Positions 5,955 through 53,390 of a DNA stretch of 54,500 nt are shown piece by piece (position 1 is the first letter of the stretch; the number at the start of each line of letters is the position of its first letter). The notes beneath the pieces are model-generated. The model did no database searches. It was given only the letters and a program-made list of their open reading frames with translations, and was not told the origin of the DNA. The stretch lies in assembly GCA_036268155.1 (NCBI GenBank), contig DATAUQ010000095.1:1-54500 (forward strand). Reading direction: 5' to 3'. The stretch comes from Verrucomicrobiia bacterium (GTDB lineage Bacteria > Verrucomicrobiota > Verrucomicrobiia > Limisphaerales > UBA11358). Position numbers and translations under genes: made by a program.

Positions 5955-6364
5955 ATTTTGGAACGCGTGAAAATTTTTGTCCCGCAGGGACGACGGAAAT
6001 TAGCCAGCTACGAAGTGGCTGGATTCGTGCGAAAAAACGATGCGTCCTGAAAGGACGCTGGAACTCGTCGTCGCATTTTCCACCGTCCTTTCAGGACGGA
6101 TTTTATTTTTGGACGGCTGACCCGGCACTTTGTGCCGGGCTAATTTCCGGTGTCGCTTTGCGACGGTTTTTTTCCAGCGGACATTTTCGATTAGCGCCGT
6201 AGGTGCGGCATATTTGTAGAAAACCGTCTGATAAAATTTTCCAAGCTCCGTCAGGAGCGACATGGTGGCCGTCCGCAAGGACCGAATATGCCGCTCCTAC
6301 GGAGCTTTTTCATTTTGTGAACGGCGGGCTACAAAGATGCCGCGCCGACGGCGCTCCGAAAGGG
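5955..6364. repeat. composite block of hairpin (REP/MITE-like) repeat units
   Basis: Consecutive stem-loops: gtcccgcagggac, gtcctgaaaggac...gtcctttcaggac, cccggcactttgtgccggg, gcgccgtaggtgcggc, gctccgtcaggagc, gctcctacggagc. Units recur at 21270..21530 and 35896..36070. Confidence 0.8.
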
Positions 6365-31574: not shown

Positions 31575-33737
31575 ATGAAAATCCGATGTTCATGCGGCAT
31601 GAAATATGAGTTCGAGGTCACGCCAGAAATGGCGCAGAACCCGGTGCGCTTCGTCTGTGCCAATTGCGGGCTGGACTCCTCGGATTACGTCAACCAACTC
31701 GTGCGTGAAGAACTCGCCGAGCAAGGAGCAATCCCTTCACAACCGCCAGCCGCTGCGCTGCGCCTGAAAATTTCGCACGAGGAAAAATCTTCAGAGCCGC
31801 CACCAGAATCTGCGCCGGCTTCAAAATACTGCCCGAAACATCGGGGCGTCTTGGCGACCGGAAAATGCACCGTCTGCGGAAAACTGATTTGTCCGCAGTG
31901 CATGGCGATGTTCGGATATTTCTGCTCGCCGCTTTGCAAAAACAAGGCGGATTTGCAGGGCATCACCGCGCCGGTTTATGCCGGGCAGAAATTTCACGTT
32001 GAAAAACAATTCTGGCGCAAGGCCGGCTTGATCTTCGGCTCGCTGGCTGGAGTTATAATTTTGGCAGCCGGATTTTGGATTTGGTATGCGTGGTTCGGTT
32101 CCGTGCCGCACCCCTATTTTTCCGTGCGCTTTGACGACACGGATCGCGCATATTTCGGCGCGGCGCAACTCGTCGGCAAGGATCAAATCATTTTCCTGCA
32201 CGGCGGCACGCTGGCGCGTTACGACTTGAAAACGAAAAAGCAAATCTGGTCGCAGGAACTCATCACGCCCGGCCAGATCAACGCCATCGTCAAATCCGAA
32301 AACGACGAGCGAGCGCGCGAAAATGCGGCGGGCGATTTTCCCCGCATTCCGGCGGTCGGCTCGCAGGAGCGCGAGGCGAAAATCGCGCTGCAAAGCGCGC
32401 TGACGTTGAATGTTTCCAATGAAAATATTTGGGTCGCATCGCCGGGCAAATTGACGCGTTACGATTGGGACAGCGGAAAAGTTTCGCAGGAAACCTCGTT
32501 GCCGGGATTTGCCAGCGCAGAAAATGATTCCACGGGCGGCGGCCTTTTTTCCAGCGACGGCAAACCGCTCGACCCGGACAAAATCGCGGCGCAAGCGCAG
32601 AATTTGAACCTGCCCGCTCGCATCGCCCTGCCCGCGCTGCTCGGCAACGCCATGCACGAACAACAGCTCGAAGCTGCGTTGAAGGACGAGCCGCAGCAAT
32701 CGCATCCGCAAAATTCAAATCCTGCGCGCCGGGAAATGGAAAATTCCCAGCTCGTCCCGGGCGAAAATGGCTTCGTCCAATTTTCCACGAAATTGCTTCA
32801 GGAAAATATCGTGGCGCGCGAGGCGATGCGCGCGCCGCCAAAAAAATCCGCACTGGACGACCCGAATTTGAACGGCTCGCAAACCACCGAAGTCGCGAAC
32901 GAGACGCTGAACGAAATGCAGCGCAACAACGGCGGCGACAAAGTTTCCGAGGACGACAGCCGTTATCAAGTCACGGTTCACATTCCGAATGCGCCGGACA
33001 TCGCCGATTGGACGGGCGAAGTTGTCGGGCCGCCGCAATTATTTGCGTTGAAGACCGTGAACGTGATTGCCGCCGGAAAAACTGTCATCGTCCTCGACAA
33101 GTCCAACAAAAAACTCTGGCAGGCCGCACTCACCTACAATGTTTCCAGCGGGGGCGGATTTGACGAACGCGAATCGCGATTTGGCGCCGGCCCGGTCGTC
33201 GAGCACGGCGACACGCTTTACGTTTTCGACCAGGCCGTATTGAGCGCGTTTGATCTGGCGTCCGGCGACGCGCGCTGGCGATTGCCGTCCGTCGGCGTCG
33301 TTGGTTTGTTTTTCGACGACCAAAATAATTTGTATGTCAACACGACGACCGGCAATCCCGACGACATCCGATATTCGCGGCAGATTGACATCACCAAATC
33401 CACCCAGGACGTGCTGCTAAAAATTGACCCGAAAACCGGCCGCACTTTGTGGAGCGTCAAGCCCGGCGGATTTATTTCCTATCTGTCGGGAAAATTTATT
33501 TACACCATTCAATCTTTTGATCCGAATCCGATGGACGTGGAAGTTTTAAGCGACACGTTGCAGGGATTGCAAAAGCCGGCCTATCTCCGCATCGCGCGTA
33601 TCAATCCTCAAAACGGCCGCGTGATGTGGGAATATTACGACCGTAACCGCTGCCCGGTTGACGTGCAGTTCGACAACAACTCCATTGAACTTGTTTTCAA
33701 ACGCGAAGTGCAGGTGCTGAAATATCTGGCGCTCTAA
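31575..33737 (+). CDS. zinc-ribbon / TM / PQQ-like beta-propeller repeat protein
   Basis: N-terminal CSCG...CANCG plus a second Cys cluster (CPKH..CTVCGKLICPQC), one TM, and repeated 'G..lv..D..tGk..W' propeller-like blades in the C-terminal part. Confidence 0.55.
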   Translation: MKIRCSCGMKYEFEVTPEMAQNPVRFVCANCGLDSSDYVNQLVREELAEQGAIPSQPPAAALRLKISHEEKSSEPPPESAPASKYCPKHRGVLATGKCTVCGKLICPQCMAMFGYFCSPLCKNKADLQGITAPVYAGQKFHVEKQFWRKAGLIFGSLAGVIILAAGFWIWYAWFGSVPHPYFSVRFDDTDRAYFGAAQLVGKDQIIFLHGGTLARYDLKTKKQIWSQELITPGQINAIVKSENDERARENAAGDFPRIPAVGSQEREAKIALQSALTLNVSNENIWVASPGKLTRYDWDSGKVSQETSLPGFASAENDSTGGGLFSSDGKPLDPDKIAAQAQNLNLPARIALPALLGNAMHEQQLEAALKDEPQQSHPQNSNPARREMENSQLVPGENGFVQFSTKLLQENIVAREAMRAPPKKSALDDPNLNGSQTTEVANETLNEMQRNNGGDKVSEDDSRYQVTVHIPNAPDIADWTGEVVGPPQLFALKTVNVIAAGKTVIVLDKSNKKLWQAALTYNVSSGGGFDERESRFGAGPVVEHGDTLYVFDQAVLSAFDLASGDARWRLPSVGVVGLFFDDQNNLYVNTTTGNPDDIRYSRQIDITKSTQDVLLKIDPKTGRTLWSVKPGGFISYLSGKFIYTIQSFDPNPMDVEVLSDTLQGLQKPAYLRIARINPQNGRVMWEYYDRNRCPVDVQFDNNSIELVFKREVQVLKYLAL

Positions 33738-35821
33738 AAACTTTTCGCCGCCAATTCGCGCGCCTGCCGGATCAAATCCAGATCCTCGATTAAATTTCCG
33801 AAACGCAATTTCATTTCACCACTTTGGTCGCGGCCAAGCAATTCGCCCGGCCCGCGCAATTTCAAATCCGCCTCTGCGATTTTGAAACCGTCATTCGTTT
33901 CTTCCAGAATTTTCAAACGGCCGCGCGCCTCCAGATATTTCGCGTCCGAAATCAAAATGCAAAACGACTCGTGCGCGCCGCGTCCGATGCGTCCGCGCAA
34001 TTGATGCAATTGCGCCAGCCCGAAATGCTCCGCATTTTCAACCAGCATGATCGTCGCGTTCGGCACGTCCACGCCAACTTCAATTAAGGAAGTCGAAAGC
34101 AGAACGTGAATTTTGTTCGCGCGAAAATCAGCCATGACATTTTCCTTTTCCGCCGATTTCAACCGCCCGTGCAAAAGCCCGACACGAAACGGCGCGAGGA
34201 GTTTTTTCAGATTTTCAAATTCTGTCACGACCGCTTTCAATTCCTTCGCGCCCGAATCTTCCACGCGCGGATAAACGACATAAGCCTGCCGTCCGGCGGA
34301 AAGTTTCTCGCGGATGAACTCAAAAACTTTCGGCAATTTTTCCGTCGTCCGCAGAAAAGTTTTTATTGCGCCGCGCCCGCCCGGCAATTCGTCAATCACC
34401 GAAACATCCAGATCGCCATAAAGCGTCAAACCGAGGGTGCGCGGAATCGGCGTCGCCGTCATCACCAGCAAGTGCGGATAATTTCCCTTGCGAACCAATT
34501 GCTCGCGCTGCGCCACGCCGAACTTGTGCTGCTCGTCAATGATCACGAGGCCGAGATTTTTAATTACAAAATCGGATTCAACTAGCGCGTGCGTTCCGAT
34601 GGTCAGTGACAAGTGATGAGTGGCAAGTGACGAGGCTTGCGTTTGCTTGTCACTTGTCACTCGCCACTCGCCACTTTTTTTGCTTCCCGTTTGCAATTCG
34701 ACTTTGATTCCCAGCGGCTCAAACCATTTTTGAAAATTTCTAAAATGCTGTTCCGCCAGAATTTCCGTCGGCGCCATCCATGCGACATTGAAACCACTTT
34801 CAATCGCCATCAATGCGCTGCAAGCGGCCACGGCGGTTTTTCCAGACCCGACATCGCCTTGCAGCAACCGCCGCATCGGATGCGCGCCGCACATGTCCGC
34901 GCGGATTTCGCGCAGAACTTTCGTTTGCGCTTCCGTCAATTTGAAACCAAGCGCGGCAAGAAACGGTTTCATCAAGCGATTGTCGCCGCCGCACGGCAAT
35001 CCTTTTGTCCGCGCCTCAAAATTTTTCCGCCGCGACTGGATTTGGATTTGCAACGCAATGAATTCATCCAGCGCCAGCCGTTGTCGTCCGATTTCCACGT
35101 CGGTCAGTTCTTCTGGAAAATGAACCATGCGGACTGCGTTCGCGCGAGTTGGCAAGTGGTGCAGGCTTCCAGCCTGCGTTTGAAATACGGGTGACAGGCT
35201 GGAAGCCTGTCCCACTAAAACAGGCTCTGCGATTTGTGTATCAAATTTTTCCAGCGTGCGCCAAATCAATCCGCGCAGCCAGCGCTGCGGCAAACCTTCC
35301 GTCAGCGAATAAATGGGCGCGATGCGGTTGATGTGGATGAAACTTTCTTCGCCGGGTTCGATGACTTCGGTTTCGGGATGATCCATCGTGCGCGGCTTGG
35401 TCTCCTTCAATTTTCCGAAAACGAAAACCTCGTCGCCCATCGCAAAATAATTTTCCATGAACGGCAGGTTCCACCAGCGGCAATGCAATCGCGCCGAGCC
35501 GTCGTCTAAAATTATTTCAAAAACGGATTTGTTGCCGCCGCGAAAACGTTTGAGTCCGAGCGCGACAATTTTTCCGCGCGCTGTGAATGCTTCGTCCTTG
35601 GTGAGTTCGGAGATTTTTCGGAAATGGCGGCGGTCTTCGTAACGCTTGGGCCGGTGCAGCAGCAAATCTTCGATGGTGAAAATTTCCAGCCGCGCGAGTT
35701 GCACCGCGCGTTCCGCGCCGACGCCCCAAAGCGAAGTGACCGGCCTTCGCAACTCCGGCGTTGCTTCGTCCCGGCTCGCGGGATTTTTCAGCGGAGAAAT
35801 TTTATTTTCCGGCGGCGACAT
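33734..35821 (-). CDS. recG: ATP-dependent DNA helicase RecG
   Basis: Wedge domain, 'LLQGDVGSGKTAVA', 'DEQHKFG', 'MTATPIPRT', 'QLHQLRGRIGRG'. The start is taken at the ATG at 35821, because the track start at 35905 lies inside a repeat hairpin. Confidence 0.95.
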   Translation of the reverse strand: MSPPENKISPLKNPASRDEATPELRRPVTSLWGVGAERAVQLARLEIFTIEDLLLHRPKRYEDRRHFRKISELTKDEAFTARGKIVALGLKRFRGGNKSVFEIILDDGSARLHCRWWNLPFMENYFAMGDEVFVFGKLKETKPRTMDHPETEVIEPGEESFIHINRIAPIYSLTEGLPQRWLRGLIWRTLEKFDTQIAEPVLVGQASSLSPVFQTQAGSLHHLPTRANAVRMVHFPEELTDVEIGRQRLALDEFIALQIQIQSRRKNFEARTKGLPCGGDNRLMKPFLAALGFKLTEAQTKVLREIRADMCGAHPMRRLLQGDVGSGKTAVAACSALMAIESGFNVAWMAPTEILAEQHFRNFQKWFEPLGIKVELQTGSKKSGEWRVTSDKQTQASSLATHHLSLTIGTHALVESDFVIKNLGLVIIDEQHKFGVAQREQLVRKGNYPHLLVMTATPIPRTLGLTLYGDLDVSVIDELPGGRGAIKTFLRTTEKLPKVFEFIREKLSAGRQAYVVYPRVEDSGAKELKAVVTEFENLKKLLAPFRVGLLHGRLKSAEKENVMADFRANKIHVLLSTSLIEVGVDVPNATIMLVENAEHFGLAQLHQLRGRIGRGAHESFCILISDAKYLEARGRLKILEETNDGFKIAEADLKLRGPGELLGRDQSGEMKLRFGNLIEDLDLIRQARELAAKSF
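34605..34675. repeat. palindromic repeat unit inside the recG reading frame ('agtgacaagtgatgag' family)
   Basis: 28 of its first 30 nt are identical to the intergenic element at 52927..52996 (hand aligned). On the recG strand it encodes ...SGEWRVTSDKQTQASSLATHHLSL... Confidence 0.8.
35156..35218. repeat. palindromic repeat unit inside the recG reading frame (63 bp = 21 codons)
   Basis: Perfect 15-bp inverted repeat caggcttccagcctg (35162..35176) / caggctggaagcctg (35195..35209). It encodes VGQASSLSPVFQTQAGSLHH. Confidence 0.8.
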
Positions 35822-35895
35822 CGCCCGCACGATACAAATCAGTTGGAAGAGAATCAAACGCAACCCGCGCCGTCGCGGAGCGACGATTGGAAATT

Positions 35896-36070
35896 GGCCC
35901 GGCACATCGTGCCGGGTTCATGGTTCAAAATGAAAATCCGTCCTGAAAGGACGGTGGAAAGTGTGATGACGGTTTCCAGCGTCCCTTCAGGACGAAAATG
36001 ATTTTCCGCGATGAACCAGACACTTTGTGTCTGGCTAATTTCCGGTTGTCCCGCCGGGACGAAACGCGTG
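35896..36070. repeat. block of hairpin repeat units, same family as 5955..6160
   Basis: cccggcacatcgtgccggg, gtcctgaaaggacggtggaaag...tttccagcgtcccttcaggac, cagacactttgtgtctggctaatttccgg, gtcccgccgggac. It is colinear with 6040..6150. Confidence 0.8.
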
Positions 36071-40464: not shown

Positions 40465-40532
40465 TTAACCACCAAGACACCAAGTCACAAAGAAAAAAGC
40501 AAAACTTGGTGTCTTGGTGTCTTGGTGGTTAA
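40465..40532. repeat. palindromic intergenic element ('ttaaccaccaagacaccaag' family)
   Basis: Perfect 20-bp terminal inverted repeat ttaaccaccaagacaccaag / cttggtgtcttggtggttaa. Confidence 0.85.
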
Positions 40533-40546
40533 AATGAAATCCGCAC

Positions 40547-42493
40547 ATGAGCAAAATTGTCGGCATAGATTTGGGCACAACGAATTCACTCGTCGCCACG
40601 GTGGATTCGGGAATTCCATTTGTCATCGCAGATGCAAATGGAAATCGGCTCACACCGTCAGTCGTGCATTTTCCAGCAAACGAAAATCCAATTGTCGGAA
40701 ATGAAGCGAACCGAATTCGTATATTGAAACCGGCTGAAACGATTTATTCCGTAAAACGATTTATTGGGCGGCGCGGTTCGGAAATTTCCGAAGAAGAAAA
40801 ATCCGTGACGTTTCCGGTCAATGCGGAAAATTCTGGCGCAGTCACAATTCCGATTCACGGCAGAAATTTCGCGCCCGAAGAAATCTCTGCGGAGATTTTG
40901 AAAAAACTGAAGCGCGACGCGGAGAATTATTTTGGCGAGGAAATTTCACGCGCCGTCATCACCGTGCCAGCTTATTTCAACGACGCGCAGCGCAACGCGA
41001 CCAAGCGCGCGGGCGAACTCGCCGGATTCACCGTCGAGCGCATCGTCAACGAGCCGACCGCCGCCGCGCTGGCTTATGGTTTGGACAAGCTCAAGGAGAA
41101 ATCAAAAATCGCGGTCTATGATCTGGGCGGCGGCACGTTTGACCTTTCGATTCTGGAATTGAACGAAGGCGTTTTTCAGGTTCTTGCCACGAATGGAAAT
41201 ACAAAATTGGGTGGCGATGATTTGGACAGAAAAATCGTGGATTTTTTGGTCGAAAAAATCAACAGAAGCGAACAAAGAAAACAAAGCGACAAAGACTTCG
41301 TTGACTTTGTTTCCTTCTGTTCAAATTCTGCTTCTGTTCTTTCTCGAATCCGTGAGGCCGCCGAAATTGCAAAAATAAAATTATCCACGGAAATGAAAGT
41401 TGAAATTACATTGCCATTTCTGACGCCGGATTTTTCGTTCGATTACAAACTCACTCGCGCGGAATTGGAAAATCTGACGCGCGACATTATTTTGCGGACG
41501 CGACAACATTGCTTGCGCGCTTTGGCCGACGCGAAGCTGGAAGCGAAGGATTTGGATCAAATCATCTTGGTCGGCGGACAAACAAGAATGCCGCTCGTCC
41601 GAAAATTTGTCGGCGAACTTTTCGGTTGCGCGGAATTTGAGGAAACGCGCGGCGGTTTGAGAATCGGCTCTGATTTTCACAAAGCGAGCGGCCCACAGTT
41701 GAACACGTCGCAAAATCCCGACGAAGCCGTCGCGCTCGGCGCGGCGATTCAGGCGGAAATTTTGTCCGGCGGTTTCAAAAATGTTTTATTGCTGGATGTC
41801 ACGCCATTGTCGCTCGGCGTTGAAACATTTGGTGGCCTGATGAATGTTTTGATCCCGCGCAACTCGACGATTCCGCTGAAAGCCGGAGAAATGTTCACGA
41901 CGGCGATGGACAACCAGCGCGAAATGTTGATCCACGTTTTGCAGGGCGAGCGTGAACGCGCGAAGGACAATTGGAGTCTCGGTAAATTCACGATTGAGTT
42001 TGAGGCCGCACCGCGCGGTGTTCTGCGCGTGGGCGTGCAATTTGAAATTGACGCGAACGGAATTTTACACGTCCTTGCGCGCGACGTGAAAACCGGCAAA
42101 GAAAAAATCGTGGAAATGAAATCCGCCGTGGATGTGGACGATTCGGCAGTTCAAAAAATGGTCGAGGAATCCGTCGAATATGCGTTTGACGATCTGGCGG
42201 CGCGACGCTGGGTCGAAGCAAAATTGAAGGCAGACGAAACTTTGGCTGCGACGAAAAATGCGCTGGCAACTTGCGCGGATGAAATTGAAAAAGATTATCG
42301 CGAGAAAATTGAAATTGCCGCGCGCGAAGTTGAAAAAGTTTTGGCTGAAGAAAATTCTGAAACTGGTTCAGGCGATTTGAAAAAGTTGCAACCGGCCATC
42401 GCCACGCTTGATGAAATTACGAAACCGCTGGCCGAATTGCTGATGGACAAGGCGATGGAGGCGATGTTGCGCAAGCGCGGATTGGTTCAGTGA
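40547..42493 (+). CDS. Hsp70 family chaperone (HscA-like N-terminus)
   Basis: IVGIDLGTTNSLVATV, DLGGGTFD, VGGQTRMP, plus a substrate-binding domain and lid. No isc genes are nearby, so I assign no hscA symbol. Confidence 0.9.
   Translation: MSKIVGIDLGTTNSLVATVDSGIPFVIADANGNRLTPSVVHFPANENPIVGNEANRIRILKPAETIYSVKRFIGRRGSEISEEEKSVTFPVNAENSGAVTIPIHGRNFAPEEISAEILKKLKRDAENYFGEEISRAVITVPAYFNDAQRNATKRAGELAGFTVERIVNEPTAAALAYGLDKLKEKSKIAVYDLGGGTFDLSILELNEGVFQVLATNGNTKLGGDDLDRKIVDFLVEKINRSEQRKQSDKDFVDFVSFCSNSASVLSRIREAAEIAKIKLSTEMKVEITLPFLTPDFSFDYKLTRAELENLTRDIILRTRQHCLRALADAKLEAKDLDQIILVGGQTRMPLVRKFVGELFGCAEFEETRGGLRIGSDFHKASGPQLNTSQNPDEAVALGAAIQAEILSGGFKNVLLLDVTPLSLGVETFGGLMNVLIPRNSTIPLKAGEMFTTAMDNQREMLIHVLQGERERAKDNWSLGKFTIEFEAAPRGVLRVGVQFEIDANGILHVLARDVKTGKEKIVEMKSAVDVDDSAVQKMVEESVEYAFDDLAARRWVEAKLKADETLAATKNALATCADEIEKDYREKIEIAAREVEKVLAEENSETGSGDLKKLQPAIATLDEITKPLAELLMDKAMEAMLRKRGLVQ
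41261..41338. repeat. palindromic repeat unit inside the Hsp70 reading frame (78 bp = 26 codons)
   Basis: aacagaagc...gcttctgtt outer inverted repeat, and gaacaaagaaaacaaag / ctttgtttccttctgttc inner arms. It encodes NRSEQRKQSDKDFVDFVSFCSNSASV. Confidence 0.75.
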
Positions 42494-52326: not shown

Positions 52327-52553
52327 TTGACAAACCCCGTGAAATAATGTTTATTCTCCGCTCGGTTTGAAAGTTACAATAATGAAAACCACGTTTGCAA
52401 AAATGCTGCAGCACGCGCAATCCAATGGATATATGTCCATTTGGACGCGCGTTGGCTGCCGTCTTGGCATCGTGGGAACGAACTGATGATTTAACTTTTT
52501 AAGATTTTCAAAAGACCCGCGATTGACTGGCAATCGCGGGTCTTTTGCTTTTT
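52327..52553 (+). ncRNA. candidate structured RNA (sRNA or cis-regulatory leader) from a putative promoter to an intrinsic terminator
   Basis: TTGACA at 52327..52332 with a weak -10 (tttatt) 17 nt downstream. A long imperfect hairpin spans 52408..52459 (gcagcacgcgc...gcgcgttggctgc). The terminator is at 52510..52553. There is no credible ORF. Confidence 0.35.
52510..52553 (+). terminator. rho-independent terminator
   Basis: Perfect 16-bp stem aaaagacccgcgattg / caatcgcgggtctttt with a 5-nt loop, followed by gcttttt. Confidence 0.8.
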
Positions 52554-52577
52554 AACCCAAACACGAAAGGAAAATAC

Positions 52578-52910
52578 ATGAACAAAAATAAAACATTAGT
52601 GCCGACGGAATTCGGCCCTGAAACGCGCTTCGAAGTGCGGGCCAATCCGCCCGCGCCATTTCGCGCCGTGCAGGAAAACGAATTCGAGCGGCTCAAGAAC
52701 AGACTGCTCGCGCAGCAATTGCTCGACGCCGCACCGGAGTTGAACGCCCCGCTGCGGCGCGCGGCCAACGACGCGGCGGCGCTCGCATGGGCGACCGTTT
52801 TCCCGCTGCTCGTGTTCCCGGTGCTGTTCGAGGAAAAAACCGATGCCGCCGTCCTGCGCGCCGGGCGGCAGGCGCGCATCTACGCCAACAGCCAGCTCAT
52901 CGCCGCATGA
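52578..52910 (+). CDS. hypothetical protein (110 aa)
   Basis: The ATG at 52578 is preceded by aaaggaaaataC (an SD-like AGGA). No family recognised. Confidence 0.5.
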   Translation: MNKNKTLVPTEFGPETRFEVRANPPAPFRAVQENEFERLKNRLLAQQLLDAAPELNAPLRRAANDAAALAWATVFPLLVFPVLFEEKTDAAVLRAGRQARIYANSQLIAA

Positions 52911-52926
52911 AAACGCGAATGGGCAA

Positions 52927-52996
52927 AGTGACAAGTGATGAGTGAAAAGTGACGAGCGTGTTTTTGCACGTCACTCGTCACCTGTCACTCATCACT
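52927..52996. repeat. palindromic intergenic element ('agtgacaagtgatgag' family)
   Basis: Arms agtgacaagtgatgagtgaaaagtgacgag / cgtcactcgtcacctgtcactcatcact. Same family as the recG-internal unit. Confidence 0.8.
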
Positions 52997-53007
52997 ATTT
53001 TGGAATC

Positions 53008-53082
53008 TTCGGAACGCGGACAGTTCCTCGCCGTGGAGTTTCAAGCGTCCGCTTGATGCGACACTGTCCGCATTCCTACGCC
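53008..53082. repeat. 75-bp structured direct repeat, copy 1
   Basis: ttcggaacgcggacagttcctcgccgtggagtttcaagcgtccgcttgatgcgacactgtccgcattcctacgcc. It has 3 mismatches against 53702..53776 and the internal stems gcggacagt/actgtccgc and caagcg/cgcttg. Confidence 0.9.
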
Positions 53083-53390
53083 GTTGGGAAGAACCGCGTC
53101 CAATCCTGTGCCGCGTGCAGGACGCGAATTACCACAATGGTCTCTTGAAACGGTTGGTAGAAAATCAGGTAATTGCGGAACCTCGGCACGACAAACCAGC
53201 GGATTTGCAAGTGGCGTGCCGCAGCCTTGCGGATGCGTCGTCCGATTTCAGGATGCTGCGCGAGAAAATCTGCTGTGTTGAGAATTGTCTGCCGAACCCG
53301 TCCCGCCGCCTCGGGATTGTCGGCGTCAATGCGGTTGGAAATTTCGTCCAAGTCGCACGCGGCCTTGAGACTGAACCTGGCCCGGATCAT
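53076..53390 (-). CDS. type II toxin-antitoxin system RelE/ParE family toxin
   Basis: 104 aa; 'A..DL.EI..RI..DNPEAA.R....I......L...P.IGR......R....RWFVVPRFRNYLIFY......I.VIRVLH...D' is the ParE pattern. It has a 4-nt overlap with the upstream antitoxin. Confidence 0.85.
   Translation of the reverse strand: MIRARFSLKAACDLDEISNRIDADNPEAAGRVRQTILNTADFLAQHPEIGRRIRKAAARHLQIRWFVVPRFRNYLIFYQPFQETIVVIRVLHAAQDWTRFFPTA

Follow-up and report, generated by a model that had tools for sequence, protein, structure and literature searches.

In a stretch of 54,500 nucleotides (nt) from a soil-dwelling Verrucomicrobiia bacterium (Limisphaerales, UBA11358; positions 1 to 54,500 of contig DATAUQ010000095.1, assembly GCA_036268155.1; hereinafter, the window), the gene encoding the helicase RecG contains, between two conserved helicase motifs, an in-frame, translated palindrome with arms built of tandem heptanucleotides. 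The corresponding site, which we denote site B, is occupied by a hypervariable in-frame cassette throughout the clade to which this bacterium belongs, and in other verrucomicrobial lineages, the very same linker of RecG harbors complete transposases of the RAYT (REP-associated tyrosine transposase, where REP stands for repetitive extragenic palindromic) family. On balance, we consider site B to be a translated and tolerated palindromic element that resides in a permissive linker, the linker being a recurrent target of hairpin elements. The relevant features of the window are as follows.

33734..35905, minus strand: recG coding sequence, 723 codons from the GTG at 35905; the conserved N-terminus, MSPPENKI, begins at the ATG at 35824.
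34605..34675, minus strand: site-B cassette, an in-frame imperfect palindrome of 71 bases encoding S411-L434, with arms at 34605-34634 and 34646-34675, a loop at 34635-34645, and heptamers of the type GTGAYRA.
34676..34682, plus strand: T7 run directly after the site-B hairpin; in the sense direction, AAA AAA A, the codons of K409, K410 and S411.
35155..35216, minus strand: site-A cassette, an in-frame palindrome encoding approximately V230-L251 (VLVGQASSLSPVFQTQAGSLHHL) in the linker between the wedge and helicase domains.
52927..52996, plus strand: intergenic heptamer hairpin followed by TATTTTGG, between the convergent open reading frames (ORFs) 52545..52910 (plus) and 53076..53390 (minus); inverted repeat I4.

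The recG product contains the RecG_wedge (PF17191), DEAD (PF00270), Helicase_C (PF00271) and RecG_dom3_C (PF19833) domains of Pfam, that is, the wedge, the superfamily 2 helicase motifs and the C-terminal domain 3 that together identify a RecG helicase, and aligns end to end with RecG structures (1gm5 from T. maritima, E=3e-148; 9wm0, E=3e-143). Among 62 orthologues, all of the helicase motifs are invariant. The alignment to the structures places site B after motif Ib (TGS) and before the motif II-proximal IGTHAL strand, with residues S411-L434 lying within ...TGSKKSGEWRVTSDKQTQASSLATHHLSLTIGTHAL.... The 71 bases fold into a single long hairpin on either strand (-42.5 kcal/mol for the plus strand and -40.2 kcal/mol for the minus strand, with z-scores of -4.8 and -5.2, respectively), and none of 200 shuffled sequences folded equally well. 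Tandem Repeats Finder detected periods of 7 and 14 in this segment, which was also recovered as inverted repeat I16; a strict scan for ungapped Watson-Crick palindromes overlooked the element, and a scan tolerating G:T pairs was required. An earlier note on this DNA had placed an in-frame palindrome inside recG between helicase motifs, and both the fold (z of about -5) and the alignment to 1gm5 bear this out; the same note called the helicase essential, which is not generally the case for RecG, as recG null mutants of E. coli are viable. The T7 run lends the element the appearance of a terminator in the antisense direction; among the orthologues, this run is not conserved, and AAG codons are found in several of them. 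Downstream, the stop codon of recG overlaps by 4 nt (33734-33737) that of a convergent gene (31575..33737) encoding a 720-amino acid (aa) protein with a B-box zinc finger and PQQ/BamB-like repeats.

The site-B palindrome has a homologue elsewhere in the window. Its first 17 nt are exactly repeated at 52928-52944, against a chance expectation of 0.03 matches, and pairwise alignment with the intergenic hairpin at 52927-52996 reproduces the 28 identical bases among the 30 of the first arm that had been noted previously and extends the homology to the full length of the element, with the similarity carrying on across the loop, the second arm and the T-run that follows. Chance similarity between simple sequences was considered and rejected because the loop and the T-run align as well. 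These two copies are those of the site-B hairpin family that are visible within the 54.5 kb. The 104-aa ORF on the minus strand at 53076-53390, next to the intergenic hairpin, has, by eye, the look of a ParE/RelE-type toxin.

Beyond the window, the 17-mer common to both copies matches at least 118 loci in the genome collection, in Acidobacteriota, Nitrospirota, Chloroflexota and Verrucomicrobiota. Strong (GTGAYRA)n hairpins (-30 kcal/mol or better) are present at 92 of these 118 loci, typically framed as AAAGCAGTGAC...GTCACTGCTTT, and in 62 of the 118, the 3' end of an ORF lies at most 90 nt away. Other heptamer families (ATCAGCA and GCGTGAT) are also seen at the 17-mer loci L081-L198 from many phyla (for example, L083, L170, L136 and L102). 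The site-B element is, therefore, a member of a broadly distributed class of hairpins that resemble terminators and have stems of repeated heptamers. At the gathering score, Rfam assigned the element to no family, yielding only sub-threshold microRNA-hairpin look-alikes, and a literature search with the sequence string returned nothing relevant to it.

Our orthologue sets comprised 60 genomic loci, 80 metagenomic loci and 120 proteins from the window's own clade (labeled Limisphaerales, Pedosphaera-like or Verrucomicrobiia), with RecG identity of 67-96%. In all 137 loci matched by a motif search, the interval between TGS and GTHA is hypervariable and in frame, and so is the cassette in the two loci with variant motifs (L249 and L270). 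Altogether, 139 of the 139 resolved cassettes are in frame; two more could not be resolved, one with a gap of Ns at the cassette (L060) and the other with a frameshift upstream of it (L056). The cassettes encode 111 distinct peptides of 18 different lengths, and the sequences on either side of them hardly differ, even in their nucleotides. The cassette DNA consists of tandem heptanucleotides, with units including GTGACAA, GTCCAAA, CATTCAA, GATGGCA, GGATGGA, GTTGAAG and GTCGAGA, and the usual layout is a purine-rich array, a loop and a complementary array; for 99 of the 137 site-B cassettes, the folding energy is -20 kcal/mol or better. One-armed arrays and cassettes composed of two arrays that are not complementary also occur (L002, L015 and P0090), others are nested or compound (L221, L228 and P0121), and in L004 and L044, one cassette family fills both recG sites. 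On a RecG tree constructed with the variable regions excluded, the distribution of the cassette families is patchy. At 85-87% identity, the site holds in some relatives a diverged version of the window hairpin and in others a cassette that cannot be aligned with it.

Several proposals of the earlier note can be evaluated against this alignment of orthologues, which the note itself had suggested. The note described an in-frame repeat; the segment is indeed repeat-derived, but it is not a lone insertion and represents one of the states of a cassette that is hypervariable across the clade. The note also pointed to the possibility that repeat-free relatives carry the same peptide. We looked for such relatives and found none: the site-B peptide is identical only in P0001, the 96%-identical relative, and the linkers of the more distant Verrucomicrobiota are short and free of repeats.

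The palindromes appear to be accompanied by trouble in assemblies, namely, the gap of Ns at the cassette of L060, the frameshift at approximately 4130-4170 of L056, and the splitting of recG in L279-L281. The split of recG between two frames in these last loci may be a long-read assembly error and is not relied upon here.

The cassettes are translated. The preservation of the frame across 18 cassette lengths favors translation, and the codon phase of the heptamers provides a direct test. Since the unit length is not a multiple of three, the units of a heptamer array fall in each of the three codon phases, so that the phase that produces TGA can be distinguished from the other two. Within the GTGAC family, the units phased to give an in-frame TGA have GTGG (Trp) in 11 of 11 cases, whereas in the units in the other two phases, GTGA is found in 29 of 39. 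Thus, TGA is avoided specifically by codon phase, as would be required of a translated sequence.

The protein context of site B differs between Verrucomicrobiota and other bacteria. In RecG of T. maritima, E. coli and members of other phyla, TGS and GTHA are separated by a helix and a strand of 21-22 residues, of the form xxERxxxxxxxxxGxxxIV. Every sampled verrucomicrobial RecG lacks that helix and instead has a variable linker of 13-42 residues, which in the more distant Verrucomicrobiota is short, variable and non-repetitive. The earlier note assigned the palindrome to the position of the short linker that usually precedes (I/V)GTHAL; the position is right, but a short non-helical linker is found only in Verrucomicrobiota, whereas most bacteria have the helix-strand element of about 21 residues. 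Because the helix is absent throughout the sampled Verrucomicrobiota, the palindrome displaced no conserved structural element, and the linker was already permissive; displacement of the canonical helix by the insertion is rejected on the same grounds. Thus, of the two outcomes offered previously, a tolerated repeat-derived peptide or a replaced linker, tolerance in a functional-looking recG holds up, and insertion into a permissive linker fits the data better than replacement. The peptides encoded by the cassettes are hydrophilic, with abundant S, T, P and R, and have a mean Kyte-Doolittle score of -1.03 compared with -0.21 for the whole protein. In an AlphaFold2 model, the cassette is a coil with a predicted local distance difference test (pLDDT) score below 50 between the two expected strands, in line with a surface loop, although the model, built from an alignment of little depth (75-97% identity), is poor overall, with a mean pLDDT of 55.8. 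The site-B linker is probably a permissive, disordered surface loop.

The second cassette of the window recG, site A, resembles REPs, its ends being GTGG...CCAC and its core GGCTTCCAGCC; it was recovered as inverted repeat I7, with 22-nt arms that are 91% complementary, and has no T-run. Site B is filled throughout the clade, whereas 57 of 116 orthologues have an empty site A (EPKPAPDLKFFPTR), and varied palindromes, many of them with GTAG or GTGG ends, fill it in the rest. Soil metagenome contigs of related strains depart from the window precisely at sites A and B and skip 35146-35229. Smaller REP-like in-frame inserts occur before motif I (P0012, P0119 and P0120), near residue 553 (P0016 and P0087) and within the motif VI region GRIGR^G (P0009 and P0110; GRIGR^PPPPGSS..G). 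Altogether, the density of hairpins in recG is about 0.4 per kb, compared with 0.03-0.055 in other ORFs of at least 300 aa and 0.16 per kb in sequence belonging to neither, and 119 period-7 arrays were detected in recG versus 2 in the approximately 655 kb outside it. The set used for this comparison consisted of the recG neighborhoods and the window, such that recG stands out against its neighbors rather than against the whole genome.

An exhaustive profile search with the window RecG revealed a different class of occupants of the same linker. Three cluster representatives (P0122, P0127 and P0143) carry an insertion of 250-310 residues located exactly between TGS and GTHA, which is an IS200-like Y1/RAYT domain (PF01797) whose HUH (MPNHVH or MPDHVH) and Tyr motifs are intact; a query spanning the junction retrieved dozens more RecG-RAYT chimeras, mainly from Chthoniobacterales. 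In two metagenome-assembled genomes (MAGs) obtained from short reads, L282 (1187-4129) and L285 (881-4120), RecG and RAYT form a single ORF of 981 or 1080 stop-free codons, and in the tblastn alignment, residues 16-410 of the window RecG precede the insert and residues 433/439-718 follow it. The RAYT of these two loci is bordered by direct repeats of about 115 nt, each an inverted pair of REPs; the GGCTTCCAGCC core is common to the L282 RAYT-flanking REPs and the site-A hairpin of the window. The RAYT family of L282 and L285 is found as stand-alone genes in Planctomycetota.

RecG is not the only verrucomicrobial host of in-frame RAYTs: we detected them in PriA (five loci: L283, L284 and L286-L288), ClpB (L300, L301 and L339) and CarB (L305 and L292), and in-frame RAYTs were found also in Eco57I-type methylases (L290, L291 and L294) and an SMC-like protein (L308); RAYTs of the P0127 type are fused to AlaRS and MetH domains as well (P0316-P0388). 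Each of the gene-embedded RAYTs is bordered by repeated REP-encoded peptides. The searched literature contains no description of complete RAYTs in frame in RecG, PriA, ClpB, CarB or the other proteins.

The explanation that we favor for site B runs as follows. The segment is a translated copy of a repeat from the family of hairpins with tandem heptamer arms (GTGAYRA / TYRTCAC) that elsewhere are intergenic and terminator-like. Verrucomicrobiota had lost the canonical helix first, and the hairpin would have entered a linker between motifs Ib and II that was by then permissive. Purifying selection on recG would keep the element in frame and free of stops, with the peptide serving, otherwise, as a low-complexity hydrophilic spacer for which no particular sequence is required. 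Occupancy by a hairpin would then turn the linker into a self-perpetuating hotspot, where cassettes could turn over by slippage and template switching between heptamer units, by nested insertion of other palindromes, and by allelic replacement via the highly conserved flanks; we derive these routes from the anatomy of the cassettes rather than from direct observation. In other verrucomicrobial lineages, hairpin-specific single-strand transposition (HUH/Y1, RAYT-type) would have placed an entire RAYT together with REP doublets at the linker.

Several observations weigh against this explanation. The commonest allele in the clade, RKIVQSPKSKVQSLF, that is, (GTCCAAA)4, is one-armed and forms no hairpin (z > 0); hence, a cassette can persist without being palindromic, and some of the cassettes may have originated in place rather than by insertion. 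The antisense fold is stronger than the sense fold in 77 of the 99 site-B hairpins and in 53 of the 60 site-A hairpins, a bias that a purely neutral model does not predict and that could reflect selection against mRNA structure, avoidance of stops through T>C changes, or a function of the antisense strand. The surface exposure of the cassette depends on the poor structural model, and the explanation does not account for the seven-base period of the units. With regard to the transposases, tblastn searches of the window and of the 140 recG loci of the clade detected no RAYT, and the RAYT-flanking REPs are GC-rich and non-heptameric, so that the case for a RAYT role in placing the site-B element is circumstantial. 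A broader proposition, that the motif Ib-II linker of verrucomicrobial RecG is a conserved docking site of REP/RAYT single-strand transposition, with RAYTs being intein-like in-frame domains of housekeeping proteins expressed via the host ORF and the window cassette being a non-autonomous or degenerate state, is one that we can put forward only tentatively. The recurrence of the branched-DNA helicases RecG and PriA among the hosts may point to a functional link between the two activities, with hairpin DNA being made accessible to the HUH nuclease by the helicase.

The discovery of RAYTs at exactly this linker elsewhere in Verrucomicrobiota suggests another origin for the site-B palindrome, as the single in-frame remnant of a recG-embedded RAYT deleted by recombination between the flanking direct REP doublets. 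In L282 and L285, the hairpin-forming repeats of about 115 nt are in frame along with the entire unit, so that deletion between them would yield a palindromic cassette of about 40 aa, and site A of the window shares the core of the RAYT-flanking REPs. Such an origin is, nevertheless, unlikely for site B, given that its heptamer hairpin shows no sequence similarity to those REPs, has an intergenic homologue and belongs to an intergenic family that spans several phyla. Furthermore, RAYTs of two subfamilies occupy the linker, and the nearest kin of the embedded RAYTs are lodged in other genes; therefore, repeated insertion into an existing hotspot is indicated rather than a single ancestral RAYT. 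We also find it improbable that the cassette is a microsatellite that originated inside the linker by heptamer duplication and slippage and was homogenized by concerted evolution and hairpin-templated correction, with the likeness to the intergenic hairpin being due to convergence. This scenario would account for the near confinement of heptamer arrays to recG among the sampled loci, for the one-armed arrays and the cassettes with two non-complementary arrays, and for the apparent relatedness of the unit families, which are AAGTnnA-like and all share RK...LF boundaries. However, the similarity to 52927-52996 covers the non-repetitive loop and the T-run, the same family can be present at two recG sites and is intergenic in many phyla, and closely related recG alleles bear cassettes that cannot be aligned.

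Functional interpretations fare no better. The hairpin could be a cis-element, either a terminator of antisense transcription coming from the convergent downstream gene or an mRNA structure that tunes recG expression. As recG and its convergent neighbor overlap by 4 nt, there is no room for an intergenic terminator between them; moreover, a T7 run on the plus strand follows the site-B hairpin, a T-run likewise follows its intergenic homologue, the family is terminator-like elsewhere, and the antisense folds are the more stable ones in most orthologues. Yet at least 18 of the 137 alleles are hairpin-free, the T-run gives way to AAG codons in other orthologues and is absent from site A, the hairpin lies about 870 nt within recG, a convergent neighbor was seen at no more than 31 of 118 loci, and neither a simple scan for the terminator consensus nor Rfam made a call at site B; we accord this possibility little weight. 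An antisense terminator, in particular, is improbable despite the look of the window copy, because neither the T-run nor the convergent gene is conserved. Still less probable is a contingency locus, in which slippage by one heptamer would put recG out of frame and thus inactivate it reversibly, making a recombination or repair phenotype switchable. Within an ORF, a repeat unit that is not divisible by three would be suited to such a role; perfect (GTCCAAA)4 arrays are common, period-7 arrays are more than 100-fold enriched in recG, and REPs in repair genes have been speculated to create mutator states (Di Nocera et al. 2013, PMC3733652). The arrays, however, are short (3-5 units) and mainly imperfect, the sole frameshift, in L056, is upstream of the cassette, and no 7-nt indels were seen among the metagenome contigs covering the region, although assembled contigs drop rare variants. 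With out-of-frame alleles in 0 of the 139 resolved cassettes, that is, without the frame-shifting length variants that characterize contingency loci, phase variation was rejected.

In-frame palindromes in bacterial genes are already known. The likeness to the Rickettsia palindromic elements (RPEs; RPE-1 to RPE-8, Ogata et al. 2000, as cited in PMC3733652) that the earlier note drew is apt as one of kind: in both cases, dispersed hairpin repeats are found in intergenic regions as well as in frame in functional genes, are translated, and vary in presence between orthologues, as site A does here. The host phylum is different and the sequences are unrelated; RPEs have no tandem heptamer units, and their insertions are scattered one-offs, in contrast to site B, which is occupied in every member of the clade by a changing occupant. 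Closer to the present case taxonomically, in-frame intragenic GTAG/CGTC REPs are concentrated in replication and repair genes, and most of the GTAG cases come from a verrucomicrobium, Opitutus terrae (Di Nocera, De Gregorio and Rocco 2013, PMC3733652). The peptides GTGVPPV and HGRHARAT from the supplementary table of that study reappear at a minor recG site in relatives of the window genome, and the peptides of the smaller recG inserts (GTGVSPV...HRRDARAT) match those listed for the intragenic REPs of O. terrae. The gene list of that study does not include recG, and neither the cassette behavior nor the RAYT occupancy is described there. Site B lacks the GTAG/CGTC tags, starting with AGTGACAAG, ending with CGCCACT and consisting of a heptamer hairpin of 2 x 30 nt, whereas site A has the variant ends GTGG...CCAC, which resemble those of the 'double foot' REPs (PMC6006769).

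REPINs are inverted REP doublets that form long hairpins and are mobilized by a single-copy HUH/Y1 RAYT that they flank (Bertels and Rainey 2011, PMC3116915; Quentin et al. 2018, PMC6006769), and exactly such a unit is present in frame in recG of L282 and L285. In hairpin architecture, with two inverted units making one long hairpin, site B resembles a REPIN; REPINs are, in addition, dispersed multi-copy families, and only two copies of the site-B element are visible in the 54.5 kb. Unlike a REP system, the window contains the hairpin only, and no RAYT gene flanked by the same repeats. RAYTs have been described as stand-alone genes, whereas here, they are in-frame domains of RecG, PriA, ClpB, CarB and other proteins; the 2018 survey reported in-frame REPs inside RAYT genes and excluded long fusion proteins, taking them for errors (Quentin et al. 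2018, PMC6006769). Rho-independent terminators likewise combine a stable hairpin with a T-run, and the intergenic members of the heptamer family lie just after stop codons, often with A-run and T-run flanks (AAAGCAGTGAC...GTCACTGCTTT); unlike these, the recG copy is within the coding region, and its T-run is present in the antisense direction only and is not conserved among the orthologues. Cyanobacteria are said to possess heptameric short tandemly repeated repetitive (STRR) sequences, and small palindromic elements reportedly insert into the heptamer arrays or hairpins and extend the structure (work attributed to Mazel, 1990, and Elhai, 2008). STRRs and site B are both tandem heptanucleotides, but STRRs are intergenic, one-stranded and cyanobacterial, with different units, and their description does not extend to a conserved position within a helicase gene that is filled in frame. 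The papers searched describe neither the heptamer architecture, nor a cassette that is always present yet changes fast at a single helicase linker throughout a clade, nor in-frame RAYTs at that linker.

The window contains additional hairpins. A weak palindrome at 41261-41321 (plus strand) within dnaK (40547..42493) encodes NRSEQRKQSDKDFVDFVSFCS in the Hsp70 nucleotide-binding domain; E. coli DnaK is about 12 residues shorter at this stretch, and the segment may be another in-frame repeat-derived insert. Upstream of dnaK, between divergent genes, lies a period-8 hairpin at 40465-40532 of the form (CACCAAGA)3 ... (CTTGGTGT)3 with TTAACC...GGTTAA ends, and a nearly identical element is present in another MAG (L006:454-520). 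A hairpin of the CGTCCTGAAAGGACG type at 6026-6115 has a sister copy at 35939-35994, just upstream of the recG start, and an Acido-Lenti-1 RNA match slightly above the gathering score (6121-6165, plus strand) is located between this hairpin and another at 6193-6306.

In-frame palindromic repeats are usually treated as scattered accidents; here, such a repeat is a persistent, fast-turning cassette of a repair helicase, with direct sequence evidence of its translation. On the practical side, the cassettes break assemblies, as in L060, and inflate the apparent protein diversity of metagenomic catalogues. The clade amounts to a natural experiment on the tolerance of a RecA-like helicase core to arbitrary sequence, and on how hairpin elements choose their targets and are retained there. 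If confirmed, the RAYTs in the RecG linker and in loops of PriA, ClpB and CarB would represent a new lifestyle of HUH transposases and would help account for the surplus of REPs that the 2013 survey had observed in genes of repair and replication.

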